Shown piece by piece: positions 4,212 to 61,684 of a DNA stretch of 64,000 nt (the first letter of the stretch is position 1; every line of letters begins with the position of its first letter). The stretch is from a virus (taxonomy: Duplodnaviria > Caudoviricetes): IMG/VR virus record IMGVR_UViG_3300025314_000006. The stretch is one strand, 5' to 3'. The notes beneath the pieces are model-generated. The model had not been told where the DNA came from and made no database searches. It saw only the letters and a list, made by a program, of their open reading frames with translations. The translations under genes were made by a program, and so were the position numbers.

Positions 4212-7200
4212 TTATTTTATTCTTGCTTGATAGAATCCTCCAATATCGTCAGCGAGAGGAGCATTACTTCCACTTGTAGACTCACCCCAATTTCCGACTA
4301 TGTTGAAACTCAGGGTCGCAACACACCACATAGGCTGAACTCGGCCACCAGAGCCATCTATAGACCAAGGTGAGTCATCATATGAAAACGAAATATTATT
4401 TATAATAACATCATAGTTGAACCAATCACCTAATTTTAAATGACTTACAGGTGGATATGTAAAAGAAAATCCTTTGCCAGAAGTATTTCTTGATGGTCTA
4501 GTAAGTTTGGATAAAAATTCCATTCTTGTTAAGAAATCTACTTTATCACCGGAAAAGAAAGCTGGCTGAAACATAAGATCTTTTTTCATTTCTTTTAATC
4601 TTTCTTTGGTTTCCTTAGTTTTTAAAGAAATGTCCCCAGAAGAATTAGTTTCTTCTCCACCTTTAATTAATTCTCTATAAATTTTTCCACCTTCATCTCC
4701 ATATTTACGATTTCCCACATTTGAAGAATTATCTTTTTGTTTAGCTTCTAAATTTGAAATTTCGGAATTCAATTCACTTATTTGAGATTTTAAAGTAGAA
4801 GTGTTTCCAACATCATCAGATGCTATAGCTAATAATTGAGCGTTATATTCAGATATTTGTTTCTTCTTATTTTTTATTTCTACTTCAATATTATCATTTG
4901 CTGTATTTATTCCATTTTCCGATTCAAAATGTTTACTAAAAGTTTCTGAATATGTTGTTGAATCTTCCCAATTAACACCAACATCAACAGTTTGAGAATA
5001 ATCAGTTAAAACAAAAAAGGATATGGAGCCTTCTCTATTTGAATTAGAATAAGTATAAATTGGCTCCGGTCTTCCAAGAAAATCTACCTTATTCCAATTT
5101 GCACTATCGCTATTTGAAAAAGACTTAACATATGGAGGAAAACTCATTGTATGATTAAGAGTAGAATCCCCATTTTGAATAGCGTAATTTTTTATTCTCA
5201 ATTCAAGGGTCCCAGCATCTTTACTTGGTTTATAGGGATTGGCTATTGTATATCTGGCATAAGCTTTTTTAGCATTTGGGTCAGCACTAATTAAAAATTT
5301 TTTAGTTCTTTGATTATAATTTTTAGATAAATCTATTCCTTCTGTTCCGGGAGCATTCTTTATTGTATTTATAATATGAGTAACGCCTCTTTCATGTTTA
5401 TTAAAATCAACAGCAATTGCATCTCCTGGAACTGTGTTTGACATCATAGAAATAGCCGTTCCTATTTCTCCATTTGTTGGTTTTAACAATTGTGTAACAG
5501 GAGATATTCCATCAGAATATTCCCCCGGAGATTGTAATCCTACATATGTTCCACCCTTAGCGCTAACTACTCCTGCTGGAGTTGAATTAGTAGATAATAC
5601 TTTTTCGTTTTTAAGCGTACTGTTAGATAATGATAACAGCTCTTTAAACCCTCCAGCGTTATGTCCATTTAATATACTGTATCCATCTAATAAATCATCA
5701 TATCTATTCCTGAAAACATTTTTCTGTAAATTATAAAGTTGAGCAGCATTGGTTATTTTCGCTAAAGGAATTCCAGAATCTGGTTTTGTTTCAAGCCCAT
5801 AAATTGGTTTTAAATTTTTGGTTGCGTCAAGTATTGTTCCTTTAAATTTCATAAGCTCTCTTATTGGAGCGCTCATAATTTCTAAATTAGATACACCTAC
5901 AAATGTGCTTGTTCCTCCCATCATTAAAGAAGTACCAAGACCATTAGAATTTCCATTTTTTGTTAATAAATTATGTCTAGTAGCATTTGCAATAGTTATT
6001 ATAGTATTTGGTCTATCAACATTTTTAGATAATAGAGAATTTCTTGTACCTACAGAATCAGATTCTAAGCTTAAATATTGAGGAACATTTGCTGATAATA
6101 AATCATTTCTTATACTTAATGAATTCTGATCTAAATCAATATTATTTACGACATTACTCGCCAATAATGCATTTCTTGAAATTAGTGCATCTCCATCTAA
6201 ATCAATAACTACAGGAACGTTTGCAGCAAGAAGAGCTCCTCTCGGAACCGCAGATAAAACATCTAAATCTGTATTTGACGGAACATTACTAGATAATAAT
6301 GTGTCTCTTAGAATTATTGAATTAGCGTCCAAATCAATATTGTTTGGTACATTGCTTGCCAATAATGAATCTCTTGGAATTACTGAATTTGCGTCTAAGT
6401 CAATATTATTTGGAACATTACTTGCTAATAGCGTGTTTCTTGGAGCAGTTGAGTTCGCATCTAAATCGATATTCACTGGAACGTTGTTTGCCAATAATGT
6501 ATTTCTCGGAACAGTTGAGTTTGCATCTAAATCTATATTCGCTGGAACGTTACTTGATAACAAATTTTCTCTTGCAGTTGTTGAGTTAGAATCTAAGTTA
6601 GTATTCGCTGGCACATTACTTGCTAATAATGAATCTCTTGGAACAGTTGAGCTTGCATCTAAATCTATATTCGCTGGAACGTTACTTGATAACAAATTTT
6701 CTCTCGTAGTCGTTGAGTTCGAATCTAAATTAACATTCGCTGTCACATTTGCTGAAAGTAATCCATCTCTTGTAATTGTTGAGTTCGCGTCTAAATTAAC
6801 TTTTGACGGCACATTTGATGATAGTAAACTTTCTCTTGTTACTGTCGACTTTGAATCTAAATTAATATTCGGTGCCACATTTGATGACAATAAACTATCT
6901 CTTGTAGCTGTTGAATTTGCGTCTAAATTAGCACTTATAGGAACATTTGACGACAACAAACTATCCCTTGAGATTGTTGAGTTTGCGTCTAAATCAATTT
7001 TTGATTGTACATTTGATAACAACAAGCTATCCCTTATGGCGGTTGAATTTGCATCTAAGTCAATTTTTTTAGATACATTACTCGATAATAAATTATCTCT
7101 TGTAGAAACTGCAGATAAATCAAGATTTATGTTTTTCTCTATATTTTTAAATTCCTGAGCTTCTCTGAACTGGGATGAATCTTTGTCGATATCAATTTTA

Positions 7201-7862
7201 CCTTCAATATTTTTAGATAAGGAAGCATTTCTTAATTTTAAAGACTCATTATCAATATTGATGTTGGACTTAATATTTGAGCCCAACATTTCTTCTCTTG
7301 TTGATATTGCTTTTGATTCTAAGTCTAAATTAGCCGGCACATTGCTCGATAATAAATTCTCTCTTACGCTAACAGATTTATCATCAAGATTTATCTTTTT
7401 CTCTACGTTATGAGAAATATTTGAATTTCTTGCATCTTTTGATTGAATATCTAAATTTGTTTCATGAGGAATGTTTTTTGATAATAGATTTTCTCTCACT
7501 GAGTCAGATAACTCTTCTAATCCAACAGAAGATTTAAGTAAACTATTTTTTGAAATTTGTGATTGTCTATAATTTTCTCCAGATATGTCTAAATCGATTT
7601 GTTTTTCTACATGTTTAGAAATCATTGTATTTCTGATGTTTGTAGAATTTTCATCAAGATTCGCTGTAAAAGTTGACTCGTTTTTTGCGAGCATTGTTTT
7701 TCTCGTTTCTGTATACAAAACATCATAAAGATTCTCCGGCCTCTTTACGTTTTTTGACAAAAGGGTTTTTCTAACTTCAGCAGAATATTGTCCAAAGAAG
7801 TGTTCTAACTTCTCACGAGCTTGTTGTTCTTCAAATGTTTCGTCATAATATTCTGTTGACAT
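4212..7862 (-). CDS. Baseplate/tail-tube-initiator-like protein with a long N-terminal 22-aa repeat region
   Basis: C-terminal FPPYVKSFSNSDSANWNKVDFLGRPEPIYTYSNSNREGSISF and VIINNISFSYDDSPW motifs typical of tube-initiator/hub proteins; 1216 aa. Confidence 0.6.
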   Translation of the reverse strand: MSTEYYDETFEEQQAREKLEHFFGQYSAEVRKTLLSKNVKRPENLYDVLYTETRKTMLAKNESTFTANLDENSTNIRNTMISKHVEKQIDLDISGENYRQSQISKNSLLKSSVGLEELSDSVRENLLSKNIPHETNLDIQSKDARNSNISHNVEKKINLDDKSVSVRENLLSSNVPANLDLESKAISTREEMLGSNIKSNINIDNESLKLRNASLSKNIEGKIDIDKDSSQFREAQEFKNIEKNINLDLSAVSTRDNLLSSNVSKKIDLDANSTAIRDSLLLSNVQSKIDLDANSTISRDSLLSSNVPISANLDANSTATRDSLLSSNVAPNINLDSKSTVTRESLLSSNVPSKVNLDANSTITRDGLLSANVTANVNLDSNSTTTRENLLSSNVPANIDLDASSTVPRDSLLASNVPANTNLDSNSTTARENLLSSNVPANIDLDANSTVPRNTLLANNVPVNIDLDANSTAPRNTLLASNVPNNIDLDANSVIPRDSLLASNVPNNIDLDANSIILRDTLLSSNVPSNTDLDVLSAVPRGALLAANVPVVIDLDGDALISRNALLASNVVNNIDLDQNSLSIRNDLLSANVPQYLSLESDSVGTRNSLLSKNVDRPNTIITIANATRHNLLTKNGNSNGLGTSLMMGGTSTFVGVSNLEIMSAPIRELMKFKGTILDATKNLKPIYGLETKPDSGIPLAKITNAAQLYNLQKNVFRNRYDDLLDGYSILNGHNAGGFKELLSLSNSTLKNEKVLSTNSTPAGVVSAKGGTYVGLQSPGEYSDGISPVTQLLKPTNGEIGTAISMMSNTVPGDAIAVDFNKHERGVTHIINTIKNAPGTEGIDLSKNYNQRTKKFLISADPNAKKAYARYTIANPYKPSKDAGTLELRIKNYAIQNGDSTLNHTMSFPPYVKSFSNSDSANWNKVDFLGRPEPIYTYSNSNREGSISFFVLTDYSQTVDVGVNWEDSTTYSETFSKHFESENGINTANDNIEVEIKNKKKQISEYNAQLLAIASDDVGNTSTLKSQISELNSEISNLEAKQKDNSSNVGNRKYGDEGGKIYRELIKGGEETNSSGDISLKTKETKERLKEMKKDLMFQPAFFSGDKVDFLTRMEFLSKLTRPSRNTSGKGFSFTYPPVSHLKLGDWFNYDVIINNISFSYDDSPWSIDGSGGRVQPMWCVATLSFNIVGNWGESTSGSNAPLADDIGGFYQARIK
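5955..7790 (-). repeat. Coding tandem repeat, 66 bp / 22 aa, about 23 clear plus several degenerate units
   Basis: Consensus VPxNIDLDxNSxxxRxxLLSxN read directly from the translation. Confidence 0.9.
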
Positions 7863-20630: not shown

Positions 20631-21077
20631 ATGAACCATTCGAAACTAAAAGAAAAGCAAAAAGAAACTAAGAATACGCCATGGACAAAACTTGGGATAA
20701 AGGTAGATTTGTGTTCGTTTTTGACGAGGAAAGTGCTGGTTGAAAAGTTTTCTCCTCAAAAAGCTAAAGAATCAGAAATGAAAGAGTTTTTTATTTCGAA
20801 GATTGATGGGTGTGAATTATTTATTCATAATAACTATGAAAATTACGTTTTTTATATAAAAGAAACCAATGGAAACAAAGAAATTTTAATGGAAAAAAAT
20901 GAAAAAAACAAGACATTTTATATAAAACATGATGGCATATGGTCAGTTTTTGAGAGCCGATACATGCTCCAATATGATGAGATTCAGTCACTTACGCAAG
21001 GATACCTTTTAGACAGTTTAAATTCTAAAGGGTATAAAACAATTGGGTATTTTTTTCATAATTGGGGACCCTTTTAG
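20631..21077 (+). CDS. Array-associated protein A (unknown function); C-terminus encoded by repeat 1 and spacer 1
   Basis: 148 aa; ends LLDSLNSKGYKT-IGYFFHNWGPF with the TAG stop inside repeat 2; paralog of 24116..24550. Confidence 0.8.
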   Translation: MNHSKLKEKQKETKNTPWTKLGIKVDLCSFLTRKVLVEKFSPQKAKESEMKEFFISKIDGCELFIHNNYENYVFYIKETNGNKEILMEKNEKNKTFYIKHDGIWSVFESRYMLQYDEIQSLTQGYLLDSLNSKGYKTIGYFFHNWGPF

Positions 21078-21237
21078 ACAGTTTAAATTCTAAAGGGTAT
21101 AAAACGGATAAATGTGGATGGAATACATAAGGTTGACTTTTAGACAGTTTAAATTCTAAAGGGTATAAAACGGATAAATGTGGATGGAATACATAAGGTT
21201 GACTTTTAGACAGTTTAAATTCTAAAGGGTATAAAAC
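21006..21237 (+). CRISPR. CRISPR-like repeat-spacer array A (4 repeats, 3 spacers; no cas gene in window)
   Basis: 35-nt repeat CTTTTAGACAGTTTAAATTCTAAAGGGTATAAAAC at 21006, 21071, 21137, 21203. Spacers are 30, 31 and 31 nt; spacers 2 and 3 are identical. The architecture is certain, CRISPR function is not. Confidence 0.5.
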
Positions 21238-21244
21238 TTAAAAA

Positions 21245-22165
21245 TTACCTTTTACTACTATTTTTAGATTTATTTGCAGCATCCTTTTCTGCTTTATTCT
21301 GTTTTTCTATTTCTTCAGATATTCTATTTATTGTCCATCTTCTATCAACTGTAGTCATTTCATAAGCCTGATTTCTTGTTATTCCTTTACCATAATAATA
21401 AGCCAAAAAACATTCTTCATTCACGGTGTTTCTGTGAGTTTCTGGAAGAGATAAAAATTCTTCATCTATTTTAACAATATCTTTTAATTTATAATCACAA
21501 GACGGGCAAGTATGCATTATTGTCTCTTCAAATCCCGGTTCAACTTTATCCATGAATTCTCTTAAAGACTTAGAATCTTTAATTTTCATAGATTTTAGAT
21601 AATTGATAATATATTGTTTATCTGTTTTATCATTAATGGAAGTTATTTGAGTTAAGTATCTACTCATGAGTTGTTTATTTTTCATGAGATGTGATTTATA
21701 AACTCTTAATGGTTCAAAATTTATCTGAATTGGATTTTCTAAAAACAAACTGCTTGGAACTATGTACTCAAATTCTCCATTTTCATTTGGAGGAACATTT
21801 ATTTCCTTCGCTTCTATTTTGGAAATTTTAAATTGACCTTTTGATTTTGTTTCACATTCCGGACAAACAAACTCCATTTCAATTTCATCACCAAAAGTAA
21901 CAGACCTAAGAAATAATAAAATAGCATCCCTATCACACACTAAGAGTTCTTCATATTCCAAATCGGAATTTAGAATAACATTATTCATTAAAATTTTTAT
22001 AGCATTACCTCTTTGTGCTAAATATGGAGAAGACAATAAAATCTCATCATAACCAGTAAGAGCTCTTACTTGTATATGCGATGTTCCATCTTTGTAAAAA
22101 AGTCCCATCGATGGTAGATAAATCTCATCAAATGGGACTTTTAATAGTTCAGGTGTAGGTTTCAT
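21245..22165 (-). CDS. Baseplate hub assembly / tail assembly chaperone (T4 gp26-like)
   Basis: DEIYLPSMGLFY...VRALTGYDEILLSSP...DRDAILLFLR...CPEC, second CPSC near the C-terminus. Confidence 0.7.
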   Translation of the reverse strand: MKPTPELLKVPFDEIYLPSMGLFYKDGTSHIQVRALTGYDEILLSSPYLAQRGNAIKILMNNVILNSDLEYEELLVCDRDAILLFLRSVTFGDEIEMEFVCPECETKSKGQFKISKIEAKEINVPPNENGEFEYIVPSSLFLENPIQINFEPLRVYKSHLMKNKQLMSRYLTQITSINDKTDKQYIINYLKSMKIKDSKSLREFMDKVEPGFEETIMHTCPSCDYKLKDIVKIDEEFLSLPETHRNTVNEECFLAYYYGKGITRNQAYEMTTVDRRWTINRISEEIEKQNKAEKDAANKSKNSSKR

Positions 22166-22185
22166 AAATCTTAACTATTTGAAAA

Positions 22186-23076
22186 TCAGACCTTTGCATT
22201 TGGCCAGAAAAGCCGAGCTGTAATCGGAACCACATCTTCATAAACATGTCCGCAATTTTTACATTCAAATTCGTGATCCATATCAACTCCTGGTTCGATT
22301 ATTCCAATATATTCTCTTAAAAAATAACTATCAGAAATTGGCATACCAGCAATTGCATTACTAATATATATTTTATCTCTAACTCCATTCATTTCCATTA
22401 TTTGAAGAAGATATCTTTCAGTAAGTAAATTGGAAGTTCCAGTGCTCTTTTTTATTTTTTTCATAGATTCTACTTTCTTAGCAAGATAATCTTCATCTTT
22501 ACCAGTAAGAAGTCTGAATTTAACCACCATTTTCATCTTTGGAAGCTTAATTGAAAATTCTCCATTTTGGTCAGGCTCTCCTTCTAAAGTTTTATATTTC
22601 AAAGATGAAAGCTTAACAGAAGTTTTATATTGCTCAGTACAATCAGGACAAGTCATCTTAACTTCATAATCATCTCCATAGCCGGTAGAACGTAAAGATA
22701 ATAAAACAGCGTTCTTATCACCTGTAAGCATATCATTCGGACGTAGAGTCTTATCAATTATAGCATGCTCCAAAAGAACGTCTAACACTTTACCATTCTT
22801 AATTAAATCAGGACTTGTTAAAATATTTTCATCTTCTGCAGTCAAATACTTAACCTTTAATGTTTTTTGACCATTTGGATAGTATTTTCCTTGTGAAGGG
22901 AGTTCTATCTCGTCTGTAGGAACCATAAATTCCGTATCGATAAATTGTGCCGGTACTCCAGAACTGTCAGACATACTTTTAATATGTTCAGCTTGCTGAT
23001 TAGTATTATTAGTTGTTTGTGGTGCATCTACACCTTTTTTACCTCCAAGGGTAATTGAATCATTTTTTTCTTCCAT
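22186..23076 (-). CDS. Baseplate hub assembly / tail assembly chaperone (T4 gp26-like), tandem paralog
   Basis: DEIELPSQGKYY...VKYLTAEDENILTSPDL...GDKNAVLLSLR...CPDC...CKNCG. Confidence 0.75.
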   Translation of the reverse strand: MEEKNDSITLGGKKGVDAPQTTNNTNQQAEHIKSMSDSSGVPAQFIDTEFMVPTDEIELPSQGKYYPNGQKTLKVKYLTAEDENILTSPDLIKNGKVLDVLLEHAIIDKTLRPNDMLTGDKNAVLLSLRSTGYGDDYEVKMTCPDCTEQYKTSVKLSSLKYKTLEGEPDQNGEFSIKLPKMKMVVKFRLLTGKDEDYLAKKVESMKKIKKSTGTSNLLTERYLLQIMEMNGVRDKIYISNAIAGMPISDSYFLREYIGIIEPGVDMDHEFECKNCGHVYEDVVPITARLFWPNAKV

Positions 23077-23158: not shown

Positions 23159-23629
23159 TTGTTTAATTTTAATATTATGAACGATAAAAAATTTGGGATT
23201 ATAGAAATACGAGATGGAGAAACGGTAAGAACTTATGAAGGACTATTTGAAATTCCTAAAATAAAAGTTGATATTGTTGAATATCAAGGATTTTATATGC
23301 CAACAAATAGAGCATGGGAAGATATTGAATTAAATTTTTTTGATTATTGTGATATTAGAAATCTTATATGGATTGATGAATGGTTGATAGAGCAATGTGA
23401 TATAGCAACTGGACTAACGATGCGTGCTGTTGACTATAAAAAGGACATCATTTTTAAAATTGGTGAATACCAATGGAATTTGTACGGTTGTTTTCTTAGA
23501 GATGTTAGTGATAATTTATTGAAAGCATTGACAAGAAGAGTTTTAGTTGAAAGGATAGGTTATCCAACAATGCAAATTTCAAAAACAATAGTATTAAATA
23601 TTGATAGAGCTATGTTAGTAGATATTTAA
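23159..23629 (+). CDS. Divergent tail-tube (gp19-like) paralog
   Basis: WEDIELNFFD...DEWL...TG...DYKKDI...WNLYGCFL parallels the tube gene at 63669. Confidence 0.5.
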   Translation: MFNFNIMNDKKFGIIEIRDGETVRTYEGLFEIPKIKVDIVEYQGFYMPTNRAWEDIELNFFDYCDIRNLIWIDEWLIEQCDIATGLTMRAVDYKKDIIFKIGEYQWNLYGCFLRDVSDNLLKALTRRVLVERIGYPTMQISKTIVLNIDRAMLVDI

Positions 23630-24062
23630 ATCTTGACTTTGTTAATTCGTAATTCTTTTTTAAATCATCTTCCCAAACTCTTTCTAATTCATATCCGTTA
23701 TTTTTTGCTATCGCATTTTTTTTAATATCATTGTAAAATGTTCTTTTCTGCATTTGAGACATTTCTTTCAATTCTTTATCTTTTGCATGCCAAAAAATTC
23801 CATCCGTTTCAACAAGCATGTTTTTACTTGGTATATAAAAATCATATATTTTTCCACCAACAATCTTTTGAGTTTCGTATTCAATATTTAATTCTTCTAA
23901 TAAGCTTGCGAAGGATTTTTCCGGAGCTGTAGGATTTTTATCCATTTTTTTGGCCATACCCTCAATATAAGCTTGTTTTTGCTTTTGAGTTCTGGGACGA
24001 TTTAGAGCATGCCTTTTAATTCCTCTTAAAATAGATGCTGTAGTTTTTTTCTTCTTTGCCAT
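23610..24062 (-). CDS. DUF559/Vsr-like PD-(D/E)xK endonuclease
   Basis: PTAPEKSF...YDFYIPSKNMLVETDGIFWH...DIKKNAIA...GYELERVWE. Confidence 0.8.
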   Translation of the reverse strand: MAKKKKTTASILRGIKRHALNRPRTQKQKQAYIEGMAKKMDKNPTAPEKSFASLLEELNIEYETQKIVGGKIYDFYIPSKNMLVETDGIFWHAKDKELKEMSQMQKRTFYNDIKKNAIAKNNGYELERVWEDDLKKNYELTKSRFKYLLT

Positions 24063-24115
24063 CTGTAATAAATAGATAAAGAAACAATATGATAGGATTT
24101 TACGTTTAAACAGTT

Positions 24116-24550
24116 ATGAGTCAATCAAAATTAAGAGAAAATCGAGAAAAAGTTAGTGATACACCATGGACAAACCTTGGTATAAAATTGGACTTATGTT
24201 CATTTTTGACGAGGAAAGTATTGGTTGAAAAGTTTTCTCCTCAAAAATCGAAAGAAATAGAAATGCGGAATTTCTTTATTTCTAAGATTGATGGATGTGA
24301 GATATATTTAAACTCGAAGCATCCGGATTCCGTTTTTTACGTCAAAAATAAAGAGATTTTAGTGGAAAAATATGAAAAAAACAAGGCGTTTTACATAAAA
24401 TATACCGACTTTTGGTCAGTTTTTGAGAGCCGATACATGCTCCAACATAATGAGATTCAGTCATTTACACAGATTACCCTTGAAGAGGGTCTAAAATCTA
24501 ACGGTTATAAAACTTTCCAACAATTCGAACATACCCCTTATCAACCTTGA
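24116..24550 (+). CDS. Array-associated protein B (unknown function); C-terminus encoded by repeat 1 and spacer 1
   Basis: 144 aa; ends TLEEGLKSNGYKT-FQQFEHTPYQP with the TGA stop inside repeat 2; roughly 60% identical to protein A by eye. Confidence 0.8.
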   Translation: MSQSKLRENREKVSDTPWTNLGIKLDLCSFLTRKVLVEKFSPQKSKEIEMRNFFISKIDGCEIYLNSKHPDSVFYVKNKEILVEKYEKNKAFYIKYTDFWSVFESRYMLQHNEIQSFTQITLEEGLKSNGYKTFQQFEHTPYQP

Positions 24551-24780
24551 AGAGGGTCTAAAATCTAACGGTTATAAAACTCAACCCTATATAGAATGCT
24601 TAATTGCAATCCTTGAAGAGGGTCTAAAATCTAACGGTTATAAAACGTTCAAATTCACGCATGCGGAAAATGAACTGCCTTGAAGAGGGTCTAAAATCTA
24701 ACGGTTATAAAACCAGCATCAAGATATTCTTTCAGTGTGAACGTCCCTTGAAGAGGGTCTAAAATACAACGGTTATAAAC
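24478..24780 (+). CRISPR. CRISPR-like repeat-spacer array B (5 repeats, 4 unique spacers; no cas gene in window)
   Basis: 36-nt repeat CCTTGAAGAGGGTCTAAAATCTAACGGTTATAAAAC at 24478, 24545, 24611, 24678, plus a degenerate copy at 24746. Spacers are 31, 30, 31 and 32 nt. Confidence 0.6.
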
Positions 24781-25128
24781 TTAAAATAACTCATTTTTTG
24801 TTAAAGATAAAGTTTCAAATCTTTTTTCGCCGTAAACCCAATATTCTTTTATTCCATTTGGATAAATTATGGCTGGCTTAAAGTGACCTCTGTGAATTTT
24901 TCCATGAAAATAATATCCTTCAATGCCAGATGAATGTATTGTGGCTGGTTGATCATTGTCTCTGTGTAACTTTCCGTCTTTATCAAAAAAATTATCCAAA
25001 GTTCCGTCTTTTTCATAAAATATAACTCGTTTTTCTTTCCAAGTATCTTTATGGTACCAAATTTTAGTATGGCCATAATCTTCATAGGGTTGTCTAAAAA
25101 ATTCAGTTATGACAAATCGTTCCAACAT
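24781..25128 (-). CDS. Protein with LHR.D.PA (MORN-variant-like) repeats
   Basis: KLHRDNDQPATIHSSG...KIHRGHFKPAIIYPNGIKEYW. Confidence 0.6.
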   Translation of the reverse strand: MLERFVITEFFRQPYEDYGHTKIWYHKDTWKEKRVIFYEKDGTLDNFFDKDGKLHRDNDQPATIHSSGIEGYYFHGKIHRGHFKPAIIYPNGIKEYWVYGEKRFETLSLTKNELF

Positions 25129-26424: not shown

Positions 26425-28209
26425 ATGGACATACAGGAATTAGCACAAAAAATATCAATAGAAAATTTAGATAAATTAAATAAAAAAGAAGTTAAACAAT
26501 ACACTTTGCTTAATAAAGAATTTCATAAATCATTAAGAAAAATATTTATTGACTTAAATTGTTTTAAAAATCATGGTGCATATGATTATATTTATGTTAT
26601 AAATTCATTGAATTATTCTTTAGAAACATTTGAAGATTTACAGATTTTTATAAAAAAATTTTTAACAAACAAAAAAAGAGATGTGAGTTTCGAAAAGTTA
26701 ACATTAATTTCAAAAATTAATGAAAAAATTTTACCTCAAATAATTAAATTCACAAATAATTATCCATCTGATATTGTTAATGTTGTAAGATGTTCGATGA
26801 TAATTCAAAATATAAAAACATTTCCTACATGTTTGCATTGCGGAATTAAACCAGTATATTATTTTCAATCAAAGATAGGAATATACTGTTCTAAGGAATG
26901 TGCTTATAATTCTGATGGCAGGGCACAAAAAACGTTTGACACTAAACTAAAATTATATAACAATGGACATTATACTAATACAGAAAAAAGCAAAGTAACT
27001 ATTATAAATAAATATGGAGTTAATCACATATCTCATATACCTGGATTTGCAGATAAAGTTAAACAAACAAAATTAGAAAATTTTGGAGATGAAAATTACA
27101 ACAATAGAGAGCAGGCTAAAGAAACCTGTATTGAAAAATATGGAGTTGAAAATGTTTTACAATTAAAAGAAACGCAGAATAAAATAAATATAACCAAATT
27201 AAAAACATTATCATCATTTAAAATTATGAATATTTCAGAGATTGTTGATATTATTTTAAAAAATAAATTATATAATTTTTCTCAAAAAAAGTTCAATAAA
27301 TACAAAAAACAAAACCCGGAATTTAAATTTAATTTTTTGCGACATCGTAAAAACTTTATGTTTGGTCACAATAATTATGATATAGATATAATAAAATTAT
27401 TTTATTCCATATCTTATAAAATTCAAACTTTTGATGAAGTTAAGTTATTTATTAACACTTTTATTATTAACGGCAAAAATCATATTCATGAAAATGTTCT
27501 TAATTTTTTTACAGAAAAATTCCGTCTTGATTTAAAAGATAAAATTTTAGAAATGACCAAAAATTTTCCAAATAAAATATCTATGGTTGGCAGAAGTTTA
27601 TTAATTTCCAAAAACATAAAAGAGTTTCCTAAGTGTTTAACATGTGAAAAAAATCCAGTTTCTTGGTCAAATTCGTCAAAACTTGGAATATATTGTTCTA
27701 AAAAATGTGCGGACGCATCTTGTGTTAAGCATAATAAAAGTAAAATAACAAACATAGAAAGATATGGAGTAGAAAATGTCATGCATAATCAAAATATTTT
27801 CGAGAGAAGTCAGAAAAATGGCTTTAAAATGTATAAATACAAAGATACCTCTTTAAATTATCAAGGTAAATATGAATTATATTTTTTAGAACTAATGGAA
27901 AATGCAGGACTGTTAAATGAAATTAAAAGAGGTCCAAGTTTCAAATATAAATGGGAAAATAAAATTACTACATATTATTCTGATTTTTTGTTTAAAGAAA
28001 GAATAATTGAAATAAAGTCAGTATGGACATATGATAGTAAAGGGAAAGATATTAAAAAAGGACTGAAAAATGAAGCAAAATGGCAATCCGTAAGAGAGTG
28101 TGGTATGGAAATAGATATTATAATAGATGATGATAAAAAAATAAAAATCTTAGAATATGTTACAACAATTGCACAAACATTAAATAAAAATTCGGAAGTA
28201 AAATCGTAA
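26425..28209 (+). CDS. Putative homing endonuclease: Zn-finger and KYGV repeats plus C-terminal PD-(D/E)xK domain
   Basis: Duplicated FP.CL.C...YCSK.CA module; KETCIEKYGVEN repeats; YQGKYE...YYSDF...IIEIKSVWTY. Confidence 0.7.
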   Translation: MDIQELAQKISIENLDKLNKKEVKQYTLLNKEFHKSLRKIFIDLNCFKNHGAYDYIYVINSLNYSLETFEDLQIFIKKFLTNKKRDVSFEKLTLISKINEKILPQIIKFTNNYPSDIVNVVRCSMIIQNIKTFPTCLHCGIKPVYYFQSKIGIYCSKECAYNSDGRAQKTFDTKLKLYNNGHYTNTEKSKVTIINKYGVNHISHIPGFADKVKQTKLENFGDENYNNREQAKETCIEKYGVENVLQLKETQNKINITKLKTLSSFKIMNISEIVDIILKNKLYNFSQKKFNKYKKQNPEFKFNFLRHRKNFMFGHNNYDIDIIKLFYSISYKIQTFDEVKLFINTFIINGKNHIHENVLNFFTEKFRLDLKDKILEMTKNFPNKISMVGRSLLISKNIKEFPKCLTCEKNPVSWSNSSKLGIYCSKKCADASCVKHNKSKITNIERYGVENVMHNQNIFERSQKNGFKMYKYKDTSLNYQGKYELYFLELMENAGLLNEIKRGPSFKYKWENKITTYYSDFLFKERIIEIKSVWTYDSKGKDIKKGLKNEAKWQSVRECGMEIDIIIDDDKKIKILEYVTTIAQTLNKNSEVKS

Positions 28210-28213
28210 CATT

Positions 28214-30490
28214 TTAAAACACTTTTCTAAATTCAGCACTTCCATCAAAAGATAACCATCCTTTTTCTTTTTTAAATTTAGTCACATAAACACTATTATT
28301 CTTAAGCTTTGACTCAAGTTTTTTATACATATTATCCCACATAATAACTTTTTTAACTGTAGCCCCATCGGATAAGTGTAATACATACATTTTTCTTCCT
28401 GTTTTAGTTAATTTTTGTTCTACATTATTTAAACAGAAATAATAATAATTAATAGGATTATCAAAATTTGTTACCGGCTCTAACGCTACTCCATATTCTT
28501 CAACAAAAGCATCTCTGAGTTCATGCAGTTTTTTGAGTAAACCGAGATCAAGATTACAAACTTCTAAAAATTCTTTTTGCTTTATATCATCTGGAGTTTT
28601 ATTAAATTTCTTATAAACAGTAACAGAATCCATTCCAAAATTTCCAAATATATCTAATTGCATAACGTTTTTTACTTTCGCAGTTCTCCATGCCATAATT
28701 TCCTCTCTGGATGGTGACCAATCATCAAATAGTCCAGCTTTTAAACACGCTTCAAAACTGCCTTTATTAAATTTTTTAAAAGGTACCGAGAAAAACTCAT
28801 CCCTCGTTAACGTTCCTATATTTTTGGCTTTTAATTCTTTAAATGCAATATCTCCCATTCCATTTATTCCAGAAAATCCCATTGCAATTTTTTTATTTTC
28901 AATTGATGTCCATTCCCAATTAGATTTTCTTACAGGAGGGGCAATTTCAATCCCTTTAGACATAGCAGAAAGAAGTGCAGCTTGTAACCATTGTTTTTCT
29001 TTTTCTTTATCGCTATTACTTTTAGGGTGATTTAAAAGTGCTGTATAGAATTCAGTCGGATAATAGTGTTTTAAAAAAAGGGTTTGCATAGCTATGTAGC
29101 TATATGAAGTTGCATGTGATTTATTGAACGAATATCCCAAATATTTAATTAACCAGTCTTCTATTTTAGTTACTTCTTCTTCAGATAAACCCTTTGTTTT
29201 TGCTCCGTCTATGAATTTTTTCCACAAATCAATATAATTTTTATAATTTTTATTTTTTAATTCATCTTCTGTTAATATGTCTCCACGTAATTTTTTTGCA
29301 ATTATTTTACTAGCTGAGTCCATATATTTTCTTAAGTTATCACCATCTCCTTCATCCATTCCACCAATTTCCTTAGCAATAAACATTAGTTGTTCTTGAT
29401 AAATTAGTACACCATTAGTTTCTTCTAATAATGGAGCTAAAAGTTCATGTACATATGTTTTTTTTTCTGGATTGAATTTATTTTGTATAAATTCAATATG
29501 AGCTCCCATTCCAAGACTTCCAGGTCTATATAATGAATTTGCTGCTGTTAATTCTTCAAATGTTTCAATCTGAATTCCTTTTATTAAAGCATTCATTCCC
29601 TCAGATTCAAATTGAAAAATCCCTTGATTATTACCCATTCTAAGTTCTATAAAAAGATTTGGGTCTTCAAGATTCACATAATCAACTTGCTCCTGTATGT
29701 CTATTCCTTTGTTTTCTTTTACAAGTTTTATTGCTGATTTTATAACATTAAGAGTAGTTAAATTTAATCTGTCTAATTTTAAAATACCAAGAGAAGATAA
29801 ATCCTTTCCACTTCCAGATTCTTGATAACCTGAAACTATTTGACCTTTACAAATATTAACTGGCATATAATCCCAAACTGGTCCGGGCGTAATAACAATA
29901 CCAGCAGCATGCTTTCCTAAATTCCTTATTTGTCCTTGAAGTTTTAGAGTAATACTTAATATTTCTGCATTATCTGGAGAAGTTAACCAGTTTTTAACTC
30001 TTTCTGAGCACTGTGGGTCATTTGGCCATGTTTCGAACCATTCTTGTAAAGAAATATCCCAAGTCGGTTTCGTTGGCATTTCTCTTGTTACAGCAAAAAC
30101 ATCTGACTCAAACCCAGATTCCCCTCCGAGAGCTTTAACCACATCTTTTATACATCCTTTTTCATTAAAAGTGCCAAAAGTAATTACCGGTATAACTCTT
30201 TCTTTTCCATATTTATCATACAAAAATTGTAATGTTTTTGCATCTGAACCTGTTTCAAAATCGATATCGATATCAGGAATCGATTTCCTTTTTGTGTTTA
30301 AAAATCTTTCAAAATATAAACCAAAACGAAGAGGGTCTATTTTTGTTATATCAAGACAGTATGATAATAAACAACCAGATGCAGAATTATGAACTCCTAA
30401 ACTTTCAACATTGTAAGAGTGAGAATTTTCTACTGTTAAATCGTGAACTCTACCTTTATATTTAATTATATTTTTTGATTTTAATTTCAT
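28214..30490 (-). CDS. dnaE: DNA polymerase III alpha subunit, C-terminal half, with an N-terminal split-intein fragment
   Basis: ITKIDPLRFGLYFERFLN, PDIDIDF, GKHAAGIVI, GIFQFES, GVLIYQEQLM, YSFNKSH motifs. Confidence 0.95.
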   Translation of the reverse strand: MKLKSKNIIKYKGRVHDLTVENSHSYNVESLGVHNSASGCLLSYCLDITKIDPLRFGLYFERFLNTKRKSIPDIDIDFETGSDAKTLQFLYDKYGKERVIPVITFGTFNEKGCIKDVVKALGGESGFESDVFAVTREMPTKPTWDISLQEWFETWPNDPQCSERVKNWLTSPDNAEILSITLKLQGQIRNLGKHAAGIVITPGPVWDYMPVNICKGQIVSGYQESGSGKDLSSLGILKLDRLNLTTLNVIKSAIKLVKENKGIDIQEQVDYVNLEDPNLFIELRMGNNQGIFQFESEGMNALIKGIQIETFEELTAANSLYRPGSLGMGAHIEFIQNKFNPEKKTYVHELLAPLLEETNGVLIYQEQLMFIAKEIGGMDEGDGDNLRKYMDSASKIIAKKLRGDILTEDELKNKNYKNYIDLWKKFIDGAKTKGLSEEEVTKIEDWLIKYLGYSFNKSHATSYSYIAMQTLFLKHYYPTEFYTALLNHPKSNSDKEKEKQWLQAALLSAMSKGIEIAPPVRKSNWEWTSIENKKIAMGFSGINGMGDIAFKELKAKNIGTLTRDEFFSVPFKKFNKGSFEACLKAGLFDDWSPSREEIMAWRTAKVKNVMQLDIFGNFGMDSVTVYKKFNKTPDDIKQKEFLEVCNLDLGLLKKLHELRDAFVEEYGVALEPVTNFDNPINYYYFCLNNVEQKLTKTGRKMYVLHLSDGATVKKVIMWDNMYKKLESKLKNNSVYVTKFKKEKGWLSFDGSAEFRKVF
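30386..30490 (-). mobile_element. Split intein C-fragment (35 aa)
   Basis: MKLKSKNIIKYKGRVHDLTVENSHSYNVESLGVHN followed by Ser (+1); blocks F and G are recognisable. Confidence 0.9.
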
Positions 30491-30494
30491 ATTA

Positions 30495-31556
30495 TTATAA
30501 TGTTTTTACATATTCAAGTGTCATTTTGTGTAGGAAAATCATAAAATCAAAATTAAATCCTCTATCCAAACATTCTTGTTTCTTAAAATCGTTATTAATT
30601 TTACATTTATTATATATCCAAGTGGATTTTACTTCAATTATTTTATTTATTGAGATAATGTATATATCTGGAAAATATCTTCTTACAATGTTATCTATGT
30701 CTGTATAAAATATTTTTCCTATTTTATTTTGTATGTTTTTATTGCCAATTATCAAATCTTCTTCTTTAAATTCTTTTAATAAAATATCTAAAGCCTTATT
30801 TTCATACCCTTGCAGTTTTATAATTTTTCCACTTGGCATTATATATTCTTTAAATTTAAAGCTATTTTTTTGTGATTTTGAAAAAATTTTTTCATTTTGC
30901 ATAACACTATAAACTCCATATTTTTCAAAAACAGCATCCAAAATATTTTGTCTATAATTTTCATCTTGCCATTTTTCCAACATTTTATTACTCTGATTTT
31001 CTTTATAACCATCTTTTTTCCAAACTTCTATCATTTTTTTGCTTTGATTTTCTTTGAATTCTGGTCTATTTTTACATATTTTTTGTGCAACAGAAGTATT
31101 TTTTAACCAATTAAGAGATGATGTTACTTTTTTATTTATGCATTTATTACAAATTGGTTCGAGTGAAAAATAATCTCTTTTTATAATATTTCTACATGCT
31201 AATTCACTTTTTTTATTACAAGCTTCACAACAAAAAGTTATTTTCATTTTGGAACTTTTAAACGCTTCTATTTTCCATTCTCCTAAAGCAATAAAATCAC
31301 TTAATTCTATTCTGTTATTTATAGACTTTATATCATAGGCATTTAATAAATTTTCTAAATCTCTATTTTTAAATGGAATTTTACTTTCTTTTAATAATTT
31401 TCTAAATAATTTTAAGTTAATATTAAATTCTTTGGAAAATTTTAATATTTCATTTTTTGTTAAAAATCCATTTTTATTAATAATGACATTTAATATTTCT
31501 TTTTGTTCTTTTGTTATTTCTTTTTTCATGACTTTATATTTACTGTAAATAGTCAA
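30495..31556 (-). CDS. Free-standing putative homing endonuclease between the dnaE halves
   Basis: CxxC...CxxC; KYGVYSVMQ; LQGYE...RRYFPDIYI...IIEVKSTW PD-(D/E)xK domain. The true start may be the second Met (31529). Confidence 0.75.
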   Translation of the reverse strand: MTIYSKYKVMKKEITKEQKEILNVIINKNGFLTKNEILKFSKEFNINLKLFRKLLKESKIPFKNRDLENLLNAYDIKSINNRIELSDFIALGEWKIEAFKSSKMKITFCCEACNKKSELACRNIIKRDYFSLEPICNKCINKKVTSSLNWLKNTSVAQKICKNRPEFKENQSKKMIEVWKKDGYKENQSNKMLEKWQDENYRQNILDAVFEKYGVYSVMQNEKIFSKSQKNSFKFKEYIMPSGKIIKLQGYENKALDILLKEFKEEDLIIGNKNIQNKIGKIFYTDIDNIVRRYFPDIYIISINKIIEVKSTWIYNKCKINNDFKKQECLDRGFNFDFMIFLHKMTLEYVKTL

Positions 31557-31573
31557 AAAAAATCCTTATTGGA

Positions 31574-33091
31574 CTAAGTCGGTAAATAATCTACTTCCAT
31601 AATTTCATCTTCATTAGTTAAATCATTTGCTTTAACCCAACTTCTATTACTTGTTAGAAACTCATGGTCTAATGTGCATCTTATTTTTATTTTGTTTTCA
31701 AATTCTAATTCAACAATATCTTCTTCTATGTCATAAGACAAAACATCTATTACTGTTTGCTTATTTCCATAAGCATCTATCACTTCTTCTCCTATATCTA
31801 TTATTTCTATAGAAGAATATAATCCATTAGACATTTTTACTCTACTTCCTGGCAAAAAACATCCTCTTCCAGGTCCTGTGGCTATATCATTTTCCTTACA
31901 AAACTTAATTAATTCCCAAACAACCATAAAATAATCAGACACTTTTTTATCGTCAATTACTTTTAGTTCGTAATCAAGCCTGTCCTTATATTTTTGAATA
32001 ACTTCATCATCAATTTTTACTAAACCATTTTTTTTATAAATGTTTAATTTTTGTTTTAATTTTGCATGTGCAAGTTTTGTTATTATTTCCTTAGTTCCTG
32101 TTTCTTTAAAATACTCAATAACATCCGGTGTTGGCTCGTATTTTGGAAATTTCTCTACATCCGTTTCAAACTCAAAATTACATTTATCAGCAACTTTTAA
32201 AGTGTTATCTAAACATTCTTCAATAAATTTATCCGGATAATTATATCCAAATTCTTTATTCATTTTATAAAAATCATCTCTATTAGAATAATACAGATGT
32301 CGTGCTTGAAGTTTAAATGCTGTAGGGTCATCTACAGACTTATGTTGATTAATGGAAATAATCACATCCTGTAAACGATTATTTTCAGGACTCGAATAGT
32401 GAACATCACCTGTAAGTATTGGTGTTAATGAATATTTTTTAATCATTCTTAAAATAAAATGATTATATTTTTTTTGTTGAGGGATTTCATTAAATTGTAA
32501 TTCTGCCACAAAATTGTTTCCAAATTCTCGCATTAAAAGTTTTATTCTTTCTTCTGCTTCTTGTTCCTTGCCTTCTTCTATTAACCTTGCCATTTTACTG
32601 GCCATACAACTGCTCGTAATCAAAAGTCCGGACTTATTCTCAATAAGCCATTCTGTTGTTATTCTGCCCCTACGATAATACCCTTCTGTGAAAGAACGAT
32701 AAGTTAATTTATTTAAATTAACAAACCCTTCTTTATTCATTATAATAATTGATTGATGAGTATCTTTCCCCTCATAGGATTTTTCTTCATGTTTATCCAT
32801 TTCATCATTCAGATAAGCTTCCATTCCAATTATCGGCTTAATTCCAGCAGCTTTACATTTATTATAAAATTCAAATGTACCAGATGCATGACCGTGGTCA
32901 ATTAAAGTTATAGCAGGATGATGGTAATCCTTCGCTAAACTTACGTAATCGTCTATCTTCGCGGAACCATCGAGTAAGCTATACGAACTATGTAAATGCA
33001 AGTGTACCATAGGTTTTCTATGTAAACATCCATCATTTTTACAACTACATCTTTCCATTATATTTTGTTTTTTACAAATATAATAAAACAA
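31574..33091 (-). CDS. dnaE: DNA polymerase III alpha subunit, N-terminal half (PHP domain), with a C-terminal split-intein fragment
   Basis: HLHLHSSYSLLDGS, LIDHG, GIKPIIGMEAY, GDVHY motifs; the extein ends at GPGRG. Confidence 0.95.
   Translation of the reverse strand: MFYYICKKQNIMERCSCKNDGCLHRKPMVHLHLHSSYSLLDGSAKIDDYVSLAKDYHHPAITLIDHGHASGTFEFYNKCKAAGIKPIIGMEAYLNDEMDKHEEKSYEGKDTHQSIIIMNKEGFVNLNKLTYRSFTEGYYRRGRITTEWLIENKSGLLITSSCMASKMARLIEEGKEQEAEERIKLLMREFGNNFVAELQFNEIPQQKKYNHFILRMIKKYSLTPILTGDVHYSSPENNRLQDVIISINQHKSVDDPTAFKLQARHLYYSNRDDFYKMNKEFGYNYPDKFIEECLDNTLKVADKCNFEFETDVEKFPKYEPTPDVIEYFKETGTKEIITKLAHAKLKQKLNIYKKNGLVKIDDEVIQKYKDRLDYELKVIDDKKVSDYFMVVWELIKFCKENDIATGPGRGCFLPGSRVKMSNGLYSSIEIIDIGEEVIDAYGNKQTVIDVLSYDIEEDIVELEFENKIKIRCTLDHEFLTSNRSWVKANDLTNEDEIMEVDYLPT
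31577..31861 (-). mobile_element. Split intein N-fragment (95 aa)
   Basis: CFLPGSRVKM (block A) and IRCTLDHEFLT (block B TxxH); ends WVKANDLTNEDEI. Confidence 0.9.
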
Positions 33092-47288: not shown

Positions 47289-47351
47289 TATACACAAAGA
47301 TAACTATTTTATATTAAACGGATGAGTAACTAAATTGTTTTTAAAAAAATG

Positions 47352-47422
47352 TTGCTCCAAATAGACTCGAACTATTATCTCGCACCTTCAAAGGGTGGCA
47401 TCCTGCATTAGACGACAGAGCA
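47352..47422 (-). tRNA. tRNA-Gln(TTG)
   Basis: Acceptor TGCTCTG/TGGAGCA; anticodon loop CTTTGAA; T loop TTCGAGT. Confidence 0.8.
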
Positions 47423-47427
47423 ATATG

Positions 47428-47499
47428 TTTTCACTCAGAGATTTGAACTCCAATTACAACAGTCAAAATGTTGTGTCCTGCCAGTTAGACGAAGTGAAA
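47428..47499 (-). tRNA. tRNA-Gln(TTG)
   Basis: Acceptor TTTCACT/AGTGAAA; anticodon arm CAACA-TTTTGAC-TGTTG; T loop TTCAAAT. Confidence 0.8.
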
Positions 47500-47502
47500 A
47501 TA

Positions 47503-47545
47503 TAAAACAAAAAACCCGAGACATTTTTAAGTGTCCCGGGTTTTT
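47503..47545 (-). terminator. Attenuator terminator upstream of the tRNA-Gln pair
   Basis: AAAAACCCGGGACA-CTTAAAAA-TGTCTCGGGTTTTTT followed by GTTTT. Confidence 0.85.
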
Positions 47546-47569
47546 CGCGTAAGTATTAAATTTTTCTCT

Positions 47570-47641
47570 TTACGACATAGCAATTCCAGAACTCTTACTC
47601 AGAGTTTGTTGTTGTTGTTGCTGTACGAATATTGTTTTCAT
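47570..47641 (-). promoter_or_regulatory. Leader peptide MKTIFVQQQQQQTLSKSSGIAMS (six consecutive Gln codons)
   Basis: ATG at 47641; CAG CAA CAA CAA CAA CAA; TAA at 47570; terminator begins about 25 nt downstream. Confidence 0.8.
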
Positions 47642-47695
47642 TTTTCTTTTAAATATTAACTAATTTTTATAAACTCGTTGTTTTTAATTGACTTG

Positions 47696-47767
47696 TAACC
47701 CCGACGGTAGTCGAAACCGCATTTTGAATTCGAAAAATTCACGTCCTAACCATTAGACGACGGGGCT
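47696..47767 (-). tRNA. tRNA-Glu(TTC)
   Basis: Acceptor AGCCCCG/CGGGGTT; anticodon arm TGAAT-TTTTCGA-ATTCA. Confidence 0.85.
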
Positions 47768-47856
47768 ATATATATCTTAAACCTATCCAAATTACGTGCA
47801 CTTAATTCAGAAAAAAATTTTATAAATTCTTTCAGTTATAAAATATTCTTTCGGCT

Positions 47857-47939
47857 TGGTGCCCCTGGCGGAAGTCGAATCCGCAAAAACCAAGTTTCTA
47901 AAACTTGTAGCTGTGCCAGTTTGCATATGTCACAGGGGC
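47857..47939 (-). tRNA. tRNA-Leu(TAG), short variable arm, encoded CCA
   Basis: Acceptor GCCCCTG/CAGGGGC then ACCA; anticodon arm CAAGT-TTTAGAA-ACTTG; enlarged D region. Confidence 0.75.
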
Positions 47940-47944
47940 ATTTA

Positions 47945-48112
47945 TTACATTTTTTGCAATTGCGATTGCAAATCTGCAATTTTTCTTTGATAATCTGGAA
48001 GATTTATTTCTTTAGTTGATGACGTTTTTTTAGTCAACTCTAAAGTCATTTCATCTTGTAAGAATTTAAGTCTTTCCTGCAGTCTTTGTTTTTTCTTTTC
48101 TAATTTTCCCAT
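47945..48112 (-). CDS. Small coiled-coil protein inside the tRNA cluster
   Basis: MGKLEKKKQRLQERL...; start moved to the ATG at 48112 because the track start overlaps a tRNA. Confidence 0.6.
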   Translation of the reverse strand: MGKLEKKKQRLQERLKFLQDEMTLELTKKTSSTKEINLPDYQRKIADLQSQLQKM

Positions 48113-48135
48113 TTTATTGTTTATTATATTTATTG

Positions 48136-48210
48136 TAGTCAGAGAGGGGATTGAACCCTCGACCTTTTGTGTATAAGACAACTGCTACTTGACCGCTGAG
48201 CTACCTGACT
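48136..48210 (-). tRNA. tRNA-Ile(TAT)
   Basis: Acceptor AGTCAGG/TCTGACT; anticodon arm TTGT-CTTATAC-ACAA; T arm GAGGG-TTCAATC-CCCTC. Confidence 0.8.
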
Positions 48211-48215
48211 ATTTG

Positions 48216-48295
48216 TACCGGAAAAAAGATTTGAACTTTCACGCATTTCAGCGACAGATTTTGAATCTGCTGTGTCTACATTCCACCATTCCGGC
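48216..48295 (-). tRNA. tRNA-Leu(CAA)
   Basis: Acceptor GCCGGAA/TTCCGGT; anticodon arm GCAGA-TTCAAAA-TCTGT; long variable arm. Confidence 0.85.
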
Positions 48296-48317
48296 ATTAT
48301 TTAAAAGAACTATTCTG

Positions 48318-48399
48318 TGATCGGGAGAGGATTCGAACCTCCAATTGGCTTTCGCCACAGTTTAGAAAACTGCTTCAATATCCATTCTGGCACCCAATC
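48318..48399 (-). tRNA. tRNA-Arg(TCT) with a long variable arm
   Basis: Acceptor GATTGGG/CCCGATC; anticodon arm GCAGT-TTTCTAA-ACTGT; variable arm GGC-GAAA-GCC. Confidence 0.75.
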
Positions 48400-48416
48400 A
48401 TTTTATTTTACAACAG

Positions 48417-48499
48417 TGGTCGAGACAAGATTCGAACTTGCAATTGACTTTCGTCACAGTTTAGGAAACTGTTTCAATATCCATTTCTGACACCCAACC
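48417..48499 (-). tRNA. tRNA-Arg(CCT) with a long variable arm
   Basis: Acceptor GGTTGGG/CTCGACC; anticodon arm ACAGT-TTCCTAA-ACTGT; variable arm GAC-GAAA-GTC. Confidence 0.75.
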
Positions 48500-48508
48500 A
48501 TTATATAG

Positions 48509-48589
48509 TACCCCTGACAGGGGTCGAACCTGCAAGCTATTTGCGTTTGGGCTTAAACCAAATGAGTTTTCCAATTTCTCCACAGAGGC
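48509..48589 (-). tRNA. tRNA-Leu(TAA)
   Basis: Acceptor GCCTCTG/CAGGGGT; anticodon arm TTTGG-TTTAAGC-CCAAA; long variable arm. Confidence 0.85.
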
Positions 48590-61336: not shown

Positions 61337-61684
61337 ATGCCAAGAAATAAAATATATTTAATTTATTGTAAAACAAATAATTTGTATAAAATAGGAGTTT
61401 CTCTTAATAAAGACAAGAGATTAAAACAACTTCAAACCGGCAATCCTTACGAAATTTCAATAATAACTACTTATGACAGTAAATACCCTTATAAGGTAGA
61501 GAAGGTTCTTCATAACGTATTTATTTCCAGAAAAACTCCTGATAATTTTCAATATGATTTTGAATTATTAAAAGGAGAATGGTTTAATCTTTCTCCAAAA
61601 GACGTTTTAGAATTTATTAATTCTTGTAAAAGAATAGAAGAAACAATAGACAATCTTAAAGTTGCTGGTAATCCGTTTATTTAA
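61337..61684 (+). CDS. GIY-YIG family protein (T5orf172/MUG113-like)
   Basis: IYLI...YKIGVS...KRLKQLQTGNP...EKVLH...GEWF. Confidence 0.8.
   Translation: MPRNKIYLIYCKTNNLYKIGVSLNKDKRLKQLQTGNPYEISIITTYDSKYPYKVEKVLHNVFISRKTPDNFQYDFELLKGEWFNLSPKDVLEFINSCKRIEETIDNLKVAGNPFI

Follow-up and report, generated by a model that had tools for sequence, protein, structure and literature searches.

A CRISPR-type mini-array that begins inside a phage gene and recurs as part of a gene-plus-array cassette

CRISPR leaders and repeats are usually regarded as non-coding, and a short repeat-spacer array whose first repeat lies within an open reading frame raises several questions: whether it is a CRISPR array at all, how it came to stand at the end of a gene, from which end it grows and what its spacers do. 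The locus considered here, comprising gene B and array B, lies in a 64,000-nt stretch of viral DNA (Caudoviricetes; IMG/VR record IMGVR_UViG_3300025314_000006), hereafter the window. The window belongs to the genome of the huge phage RIF_PHAGE_CU_29_17 (503,412 bp; GCA_902731165.1), a Rifle sediment (groundwater) phage (Al-Shayeb et al., 2020, Nature; PMC7162821, Supplementary Table 1). This genome is listed as CRISPR-Cas positive, with Cas1, Cas2 and a type V interference gene, ‘cas14K’, and one of its spacers was reported to be directed against a host class II aaRS, likely GlyRS (PMC7162821). The arrays of this phage are hence already known as CRISPR arrays from that study. Its text and supplements, as searched by us, contain no statement of dispersed cassettes, of a coding first repeat or of a wide spread of such loci.

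The letters of array B agree with their first description in a sequence-only reading of the window (Table 1). The 36-nt repeat CCTTGAAGAGGGTCTAAAATCTAACGGTTATAAAAC is present in four exact copies, the chance expectation for which is zero; the fifth copy is degenerate, with TCTAAC altered to TACAAC by two substitutions and one A lost; and the four spacers, of 31, 30, 31 and 32 nt, are all unique and identical to those first quoted. The start-to-start steps are 67, 66, 67 and 68 nt. Several properties by which CRISPR arrays are recognized can be seen here: near-identical direct repeats, regularly spaced and within the 23-50 nt range; unique spacers that differ little in length (30-32 nt) and of foreign origin as judged from their composition (GC 0.389 versus 0.286 for the window, with 0 of 20,000 random sets as high); and repeats that are homogeneous at the leader end and degenerate at the trailer end, as is also seen in array C, described below, and in six distant arrays. 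What is absent is a non-coding AT-rich leader, its place before repeat 1 being occupied by the coding sequence of a gene that evolves under purifying selection. Together these observations support array B as a genuine CRISPR-type array, with its leader side and first repeat inside a real gene. The cassette sequences returned no family match in Rfam.

Table 1. Features of the array B locus and its sister cassette A, in window coordinates
Feature	Position	Strand	Remark
Sister cassette A: 148-aa paralogue and four repeats (CCTTTTAGACAGTTTAAATTCTAAAGGGTATAAAAC)	20631..21237	+	paralogue gene 20631-21077
Pre-ATG motif (..CGTTTAAACAGTT ATG), candidate cassette promoter or translation signal	24097..24115	+	alignment
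Gene B, 144 aa, family without characterised members	24116..24550	+	ORF, table 11
Sigma-70-like match TTGAGA-17-CATAAT inside gene B	24423..24451	+	~27 nt 5' of repeat 1
Repeat 1	24478..24513	+	in frame within gene B
Spacer B1, 31 nt	24514..24544	+	translated as present C-terminal tail of gene B
Repeat 2	24545..24580	+	holds gene B stop TGA, 24548-24550
Spacer B2, 30 nt	24581..24610	+	
Repeat 3	24611..24646	+	
Spacer B3, 31 nt	24647..24677	+	antisense match to glycine-tRNA ligase gene of other organisms in same samples
Repeat 4	24678..24713	+	
Spacer B4, 32 nt	24714..24745	+	most distal; sole one retained in one-spacer variant
Degenerate terminal repeat	24746..24780	+	followed by TTAA, overlapping stop of convergent gene 24781-25128 (-)

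The gene B ORF spans repeat 1, spacer B1 and 8 nt of repeat 2: repeat 1 encodes residues 122-133 (LEEGLKSNGYKT), while the tail FQQFEHTPYQP is contributed by spacer B1 and the start of repeat 2. As spacer B1 is 31 nt long the frame is shifted, and translation therefore ends at the TGA within repeat 2. An alternative genetic code was considered and rejected: reading this TGA as a residue adds five codons only, followed by a TAA. Gene B is a real gene under purifying selection, with pairwise dN/dS values of 0.2-0.4, substitutions distributed over codon positions in the order 3 > 1 > 2, and 64% identity to paralogue A. Synonymous-codon identity is about uniform (0.68-0.98) without a peak in the block before the repeat, with no sign of suppressed synonymous change just upstream of it. 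When provided with a deep alignment, AF2 models the protein with a pLDDT of 88.8 (a shallow alignment gives a poor model, pLDDT 46). In the AF2 model, residues 122-133 close the last helix and make up a terminal strand, and the repeat is thereby predicted to encode a structured C-terminus lying inside the fold. With the leader-proximal repeat being part of the structured protein, a single 36-nt sequence would be under constraint at both the protein and the array level.

The gene B protein has no match in Pfam, PHROG or the PDB and nothing usable in NCBIfam, and the GenBank phage collection contains no DNA or protein match to it or to the window. A profile search recovered 528 family representatives (E<=1e-3) from a library clustered at 50% identity. 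Structure and family searches (PDB Foldseek, VIA wide, AFDB, BFVD and ESM Atlas) matched uncharacterised tailed-phage proteins only, and no nucleic-acid-binding or nuclease fold was recognised for the model (best Z 4.2). In a complete 51-kb phage (G008; L044 838-1776) the family domain constitutes the C-terminal third of a 312-aa protein and is followed by a two-repeat array; the domain can hence be fused to other modules.

Array B is one of several such loci. Cassette A, in the same window, has a repeat related to, yet different from, that of array B. Further cassettes, units C and D, are found on the same 503,412-bp contig, and units B' and F on related contigs, so that the genome of RIF_PHAGE_CU_29_17 contains at least four cassettes. 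Each unit has its own repeat variant that is homogeneous within the array, and no spacer is common to two units. Homology between units across genomes and contexts covers ~30 nt 5' of the ATG, the gene and the array, and nothing beyond: the motif, the ~135-codon gene and the array constitute a self-contained cassette, in which the 36-nt repeat doubles as the last 12 codons. Five units (A, B, C, D and F) out of six keep the pre-ATG motif, which may, going by this alignment, act as the promoter of the cassette. A sigma-70-like match inside gene B has a counterpart at the homologous position of gene A (20950-20978), but its -35 hexamer is not kept in unit C and such matches are no more numerous in the region than expected by chance; an internal promoter is at most faintly suggested here. 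Of 20 listed sequencing runs that contain the locus, 0 are recorded as RNA. Within array A, spacers 2 and 3 are identical, one 30-nt spacer standing at both 21106-21135 and 21172-21201. The same spacer twice in succession is unusual among CRISPR arrays, and from this succession it appears that a whole repeat-spacer unit was duplicated.

The same layout is present in distant phages with unrelated repeat sequences, the family comprising 528 clusters. In many distant members the C-terminal motif appears again after ~10 residues. The motif recurs exactly 22 aa further on in 25 of 141 family proteins, a figure that is a lower bound since a protein displays only those units that are in frame and free of stops. 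At the DNA level, a search with a distant sub-alignment yielded 10 IMG/VR loci, 7 of which contain two to six near-perfect ~36-nt repeats in a chain with a period of 65-66 nt, and the repeats of these seven chains are unrelated in sequence to those of the window. We found no description of a gene-terminal CRISPR cassette, or of its spread over a large phage protein family, in the open literature searched.

From the polarity of array B, the growing end had been placed at its gene-proximal side, and this placement is favoured by the decay of distal repeats, by the terminal repeat of array C and by the existence of variants with 0, 1 and 4 spacers. Degenerate copies are always gene-distal in the eight arrays that have them (B, C, L042, L043, L046, L048, L049 and L051). 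The terminal repeat of array C differs from the B' repeat by 2 mismatches versus 11 from the repeat of its own array (manual count), which is expected if the gene end templates new repeats and the oldest copy retains an earlier state. With regard to spacer number, one contig with flanks 100% identical to the window (L015) has no spacers, the gene running directly into the degenerate repeat, and a contig of sequencing run X11 with identical flanks has B4 only (no X11 contig covers B1-B3), as compared to four spacers in the window; deletions between repeats are a possible alternative source of the 0- and 1-spacer variants, and Logan contigs (k=31) may mis-join across a 36-nt repeat. A comparison of the array across samples, earlier suggested as a check for shared distal and novel proximal spacers, showed distal B4 to be common to the window and the short variant; a novel proximal spacer was found in 0 of 8 sequencing runs, so that no acquisition in progress was seen. 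The last repeat of units A, D and F leads straight into an in-frame T-TAA or T-TAG, and without the array the gene would accordingly end in ...GYKT-stop once more.

It had further been noted that no spacer of array B has a stop in the gene frame, and proposed that each new spacer would rewrite the C-terminus of the protein. The former is true of all four spacers if each is placed directly after repeat 1, although the gene does not traverse the array. Of the latter the geometry survives, in that the tail after ...GYKT changes with the adjoining spacer, but selection on translated spacers is unsupported. Among 18 spacers of the close family the gene frame is stop-free in 16 and the other frames in 10-13 (shuffle mean 9.95, P=0.002, uncorrected). 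The anticipated depletion of stops specific to the gene frame nevertheless failed to appear in 40 spacer cores from 13 arrays, of which 32 are stop-free in the gene frame versus 33 in another frame. Early in-frame stops are found in the homologues P0005, P0006 and P0012 and in unit F (F1), and the tails after repeat 1 are not conserved between homologues. As depletion is not frame-specific, early stops occur and tails are unconserved, the tail is best regarded as a tolerated by-product, and its rewriting looks incidental.

With respect to spacer targets, for which a protospacer search had likewise been suggested at the outset, a match is known for B3; B1, B2 and B4 have no exact match of their 22-nt cores in IMG/VR, and hence no related virus was recovered as their target by exact 22-mers in that database; the known target is cellular. 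As first noted, no spacer has a match elsewhere in the window, and this extends to every locus that we fetched. B3 matches contigs of other organisms from runs X11 (over 24647-24679) and X15 (over 24647-24677), with 3 differences each and unlike flanks. Translation of the reverse strand gives 30 residues, and each of their 14 PDB matches is a GlyRS (best E 1.7e-9). Spacer B3, read on its plus strand, is thus antisense to the GlyRS coding strand. The protospacer has a T-rich 5' flank, TCT or TTT, in two related GlyRS targets, all for this one spacer. By our reading, B3 is the GlyRS-directed spacer reported for this genome (Al-Shayeb et al., 2020; PMC7162821), which can now be located in array B. 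Known targets account for 1 of ~18 spacers of the close family.

We then consider what protein might use these arrays. No cas gene is present beside any cassette; no cas family was detected among the nearest neighbours of array B (baseplate hub, Vsr/DUF559-like homing endonuclease, holin and unnamed ORFs) or the largest ORFs of the window; and Cas1 was not found among ten ORFs near array A (12.7-19.9 kb) or on ten viral contigs. The complete 51-kb cassette phage (L044) encodes neither Cas1 nor a Cas12f-like protein. A Cas13-like effector was sought among the large unknown ORFs of the window and discarded, there being no NCBIfam match and no paired HEPN motifs. The published interference protein, Cas14K (P0016; 403 aa; L037 8001-9212, in the 351-368 kb part of the record), is encoded more than 200 kb from the cassettes. 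It scores in NCBIfam as TnpB (154 bits), below the Cas12f2 cut-off, and has homologues on the related contig G001 and on G006. No array lies within 8 kb of cas14K, and no anti-repeat or tracrRNA rose above the shuffle background in the six cassettes and a cas14K locus (L036), by ungapped comparison and RNAduplex (z near 0). The type V-F arrangement, with an effector beside the array and a tracrRNA carrying an anti-repeat, is consequently not seen. A viral array with both repeat ends alike (CCTT...GGTTATAAAAC; L031) does adjoin a Cas12f-like gene, whose product is 25% identical to Cas14K over 196 aa. Among cellular genomes, arrays sharing the 3' end GGKTATAAAAC include one in a type II-A locus with Cas9-Cas1-Csn2 (L027) and one with a Cas13a-like gene (L026). 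In 185,579 species genomes, scanned for three successive copies of the 3' motif, no cellular array shared the whole repeat; the arrays recovered were type II-A, Cas13a-like and type I/III-like only, with differing 5' parts.

As to the surroundings of cas14K, the gene stands alone on its strand amid opposite-strand genes, with a 52-aa ORF upstream. On the related 106-kb phage contig (L036) it is followed by two tandem 45-nt copies (1072-1161), and a 279-aa ORF (187-1026) resembles, by eye, an IS transposase, which suggests a possible IS context for the gene on that contig.

We favour, as moderately probable, a composite reading in which array B is a CRISPR-type mini-array of a gene-plus-array cassette, with the following origin, growth, guide role and by-product tail. 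The array would have originated when a spacer was integrated, with duplication of the repeat, at the extreme 3' end of a gene formerly ending in ...GYKT-stop. New units would be added on the gene side and would each be copied from the 3' end of that gene; such copying would account for the match between repeat and gene in all lineages. The gene transcript would double as the pre-crRNA, and the guides would direct a putative effector against genes of the host or of competitors, the candidates being the nuclease-impaired TnpB-like ‘Cas14K’, a class 2 effector of the host and the protein of the cassette. The tail of 0-16 residues contributed by spacer sequence would be a tolerated by-product and not the purpose of the arrangement.

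A different explanation is that the locus is not CRISPR: it would consist of tandem protein repeats that are translated, or would be a cassette-based system diversifying the C-terminus. In keeping with it, units are in frame and read through in array C, in P0008 and P0011 and in the 25 of 141 proteins mentioned above, the four repeats of L041 have diverged with all remaining in frame, and gene-frame stops are depleted in the close-family spacers (16 of 18). Yet in A, B, D, B' and F the frame breaks after the first unit, with stops thereafter, the repeats are identical at the nucleotide level with spacers that are unrelated and of foreign GC, and one spacer matches a GlyRS gene; given also that stop depletion is not frame-specific in the 40 spacers and that the tails are unconserved, we consider it very improbable. 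Once the array is accepted as CRISPR-type, its effector can be sought in the phage or in the host. The reading of Al-Shayeb et al. (2020), by which the arrays guide the phage's own nuclease-impaired Cas14K (a type V-F-like ‘dCas14’) to repress host genes such as GlyRS, draws on their text and Table S1 (PMC7162821), the Cas14K homologues on this genome and on G001 and G006, the L031 array beside a Cas12f-like gene and the T-rich 5' flank of the B3 protospacer. The great distance of cas14K from the cassettes, with neither array nor anti-repeat beside it, its sub-threshold Cas12f score, the low and partial identity of the L031 effector and the presence of cassettes in phage contigs without a Cas12f-like gene, one of them complete, weigh against it; accordingly, it is a tentative possibility, and the published assignment finds no support here from proximity or an anti-repeat.

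The alternative of a borrowed host class 2 effector begins from geometry: 36-nt repeats with 30-nt spacers are typical of class 2 systems. An RNA-targeting type VI effector is a candidate in particular because a gene-sense B3 transcript would be complementary to GlyRS mRNA, B3 being antisense to the coding strand of its target. The cellular arrays with the GGKTATAAAAC end (L026, L027), the lack of cas genes on most cassette-bearing contigs and the established use of host Cas by viral mini-arrays (PMC11656645) are consistent with such borrowing. However, the three-copy scan of cellular genomes recovered no array with the full repeat, the cellular matches are from Firmicutes whereas the published profile of the phage points towards Bacteroidetes (PMC7162821), the strand evidence comes from one spacer, and B1, B2 and B4 lack a match in related viruses. 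It would also be odd for many different host repeats all to encode the end of one phage protein, and we hold host borrowing to be unlikely. A further proposal gives the cassette protein itself a role: it would be a functional partner of its own array, and a new CRISPR-associated protein, which marks the integration site or binds, processes or escorts the repeat RNA of its own transcript, the one-to-one linkage being selected and not a historical accident. The linkage is strict over 528 clusters despite unrelated repeat sequences, a separate diverged paralogue goes with every array in the genome, the cassette travels as one piece and occurs in the complete 51-kb phage lacking Cas1 and Cas12f-like genes, and a confident structure model matches only uncharacterised phage proteins. 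On the other hand, linkage is automatic, with no function needed, if arrays copy the gene 3' end; a distant paralogue without an array exists on a related contig (L004); and no nucleic-acid-binding or nuclease fold is recognised in the model. A partnership of this kind is accordingly doubtful. Equally doubtful is its bolder form, whereby a ~100-135 aa protein and its 3'-terminal array make up a self-contained RNA-guided module, the protein acting on its own repeat (in integration-site definition, processing or as a guide-binding effector) and the spacers silencing genes of the host or of rivals, GlyRS among them, possibly at the RNA level. If this is true, hundreds of phage lineages would harbour a novel CRISPR-associated family or minimal system.

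Growth of the array from the gene's own end, as favoured above, may be set beside three known phenomena. Ectopic or de novo CRISPR arrays form in laboratory studies by off-target spacer integration with duplication of the target. Such an insertion at a place where a gene once ended agrees with the in-frame stop behind the last repeat of A, D and F, but the product here is conserved, duplicated and family-wide and not sporadic. TnpB/IscB omega-RNA genes overlap the 3' end of a protein gene. There, too, a guide element lies over the 3' end of a coding sequence, the present genome encodes a TnpB-like protein with an impaired RuvC motif, and, as regards type V-F (Cas12f/Cas14) arrays, the repeat ends of the L031 array beside a Cas12f-like gene resemble those of the cassettes; in contrast, the overlapped gene here encodes an unrelated ~135 aa protein and is neither tnpB nor cas12f, and a repeat-spacer array takes the place of a single guide, with no scaffold or anti-repeat found. 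Viruses also make use of host Cas, or inhibit it, through mini-arrays and lone repeat units, which are likewise short, cas-less and provided with unique spacers (Medvedeva 2019, PMC6858448; PMC11656645). Their repeats are identical to those of the host and they mostly target related viruses (PMC6858448; PMC11656645), whereas no host repeat was found to match those of the phage cassettes, the one target known for the latter is a housekeeping gene of the host, and each array, of 2-6 repeats, is joined in frame to the gene of a phage protein.

The cassette gene may serve as a marker for finding cas-less arrays in phages, its product is a candidate new array-associated protein, and the locus would illustrate how arrays can originate in nature at the end of a gene. 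The question of the effector for the arrays of a published huge phage thought to silence host GlyRS is also reopened.

Several further observations concern the family and its genomic setting. In L041 (371-1116), on a distant contig, a second, truncated family gene comes immediately after the one that has the four diverged in-frame repeats. The window encodes T4-like baseplate hub proteins, homing endonucleases, a holin and eight tRNAs. Homing-endonuclease-like genes flank the cassettes at 23610-24062 (-), 26425-28209 (+) and 61677-63533 (-), and include Vsr/DUF559 and DUF7487 paralogues; GIY-YIG or NUMOD endonuclease genes lie within a few kb of units C and D. At 21245-23076 (-) there are two adjoining paralogous T4-type baseplate hub genes (306 and 296 aa) with zinc-ribbon-like matches. 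DNA polymerase III alpha is split into two ORFs at 28214-33091 (-) with a 353-aa ORF between them, the upstream ORF ending in an intein/Hint-like sequence. The eight tRNA genes (Gln x2, Glu, Ile, Leu x2, Arg x2) are clustered at 47351-48589 (-). Finally, a 1216-aa ORF without a family match (4212-7862, -) contains ~ten tandem 66-nt (22-codon) units at 6260-7105: these have the period of the arrays, with an unrelated repeat, and are coding.
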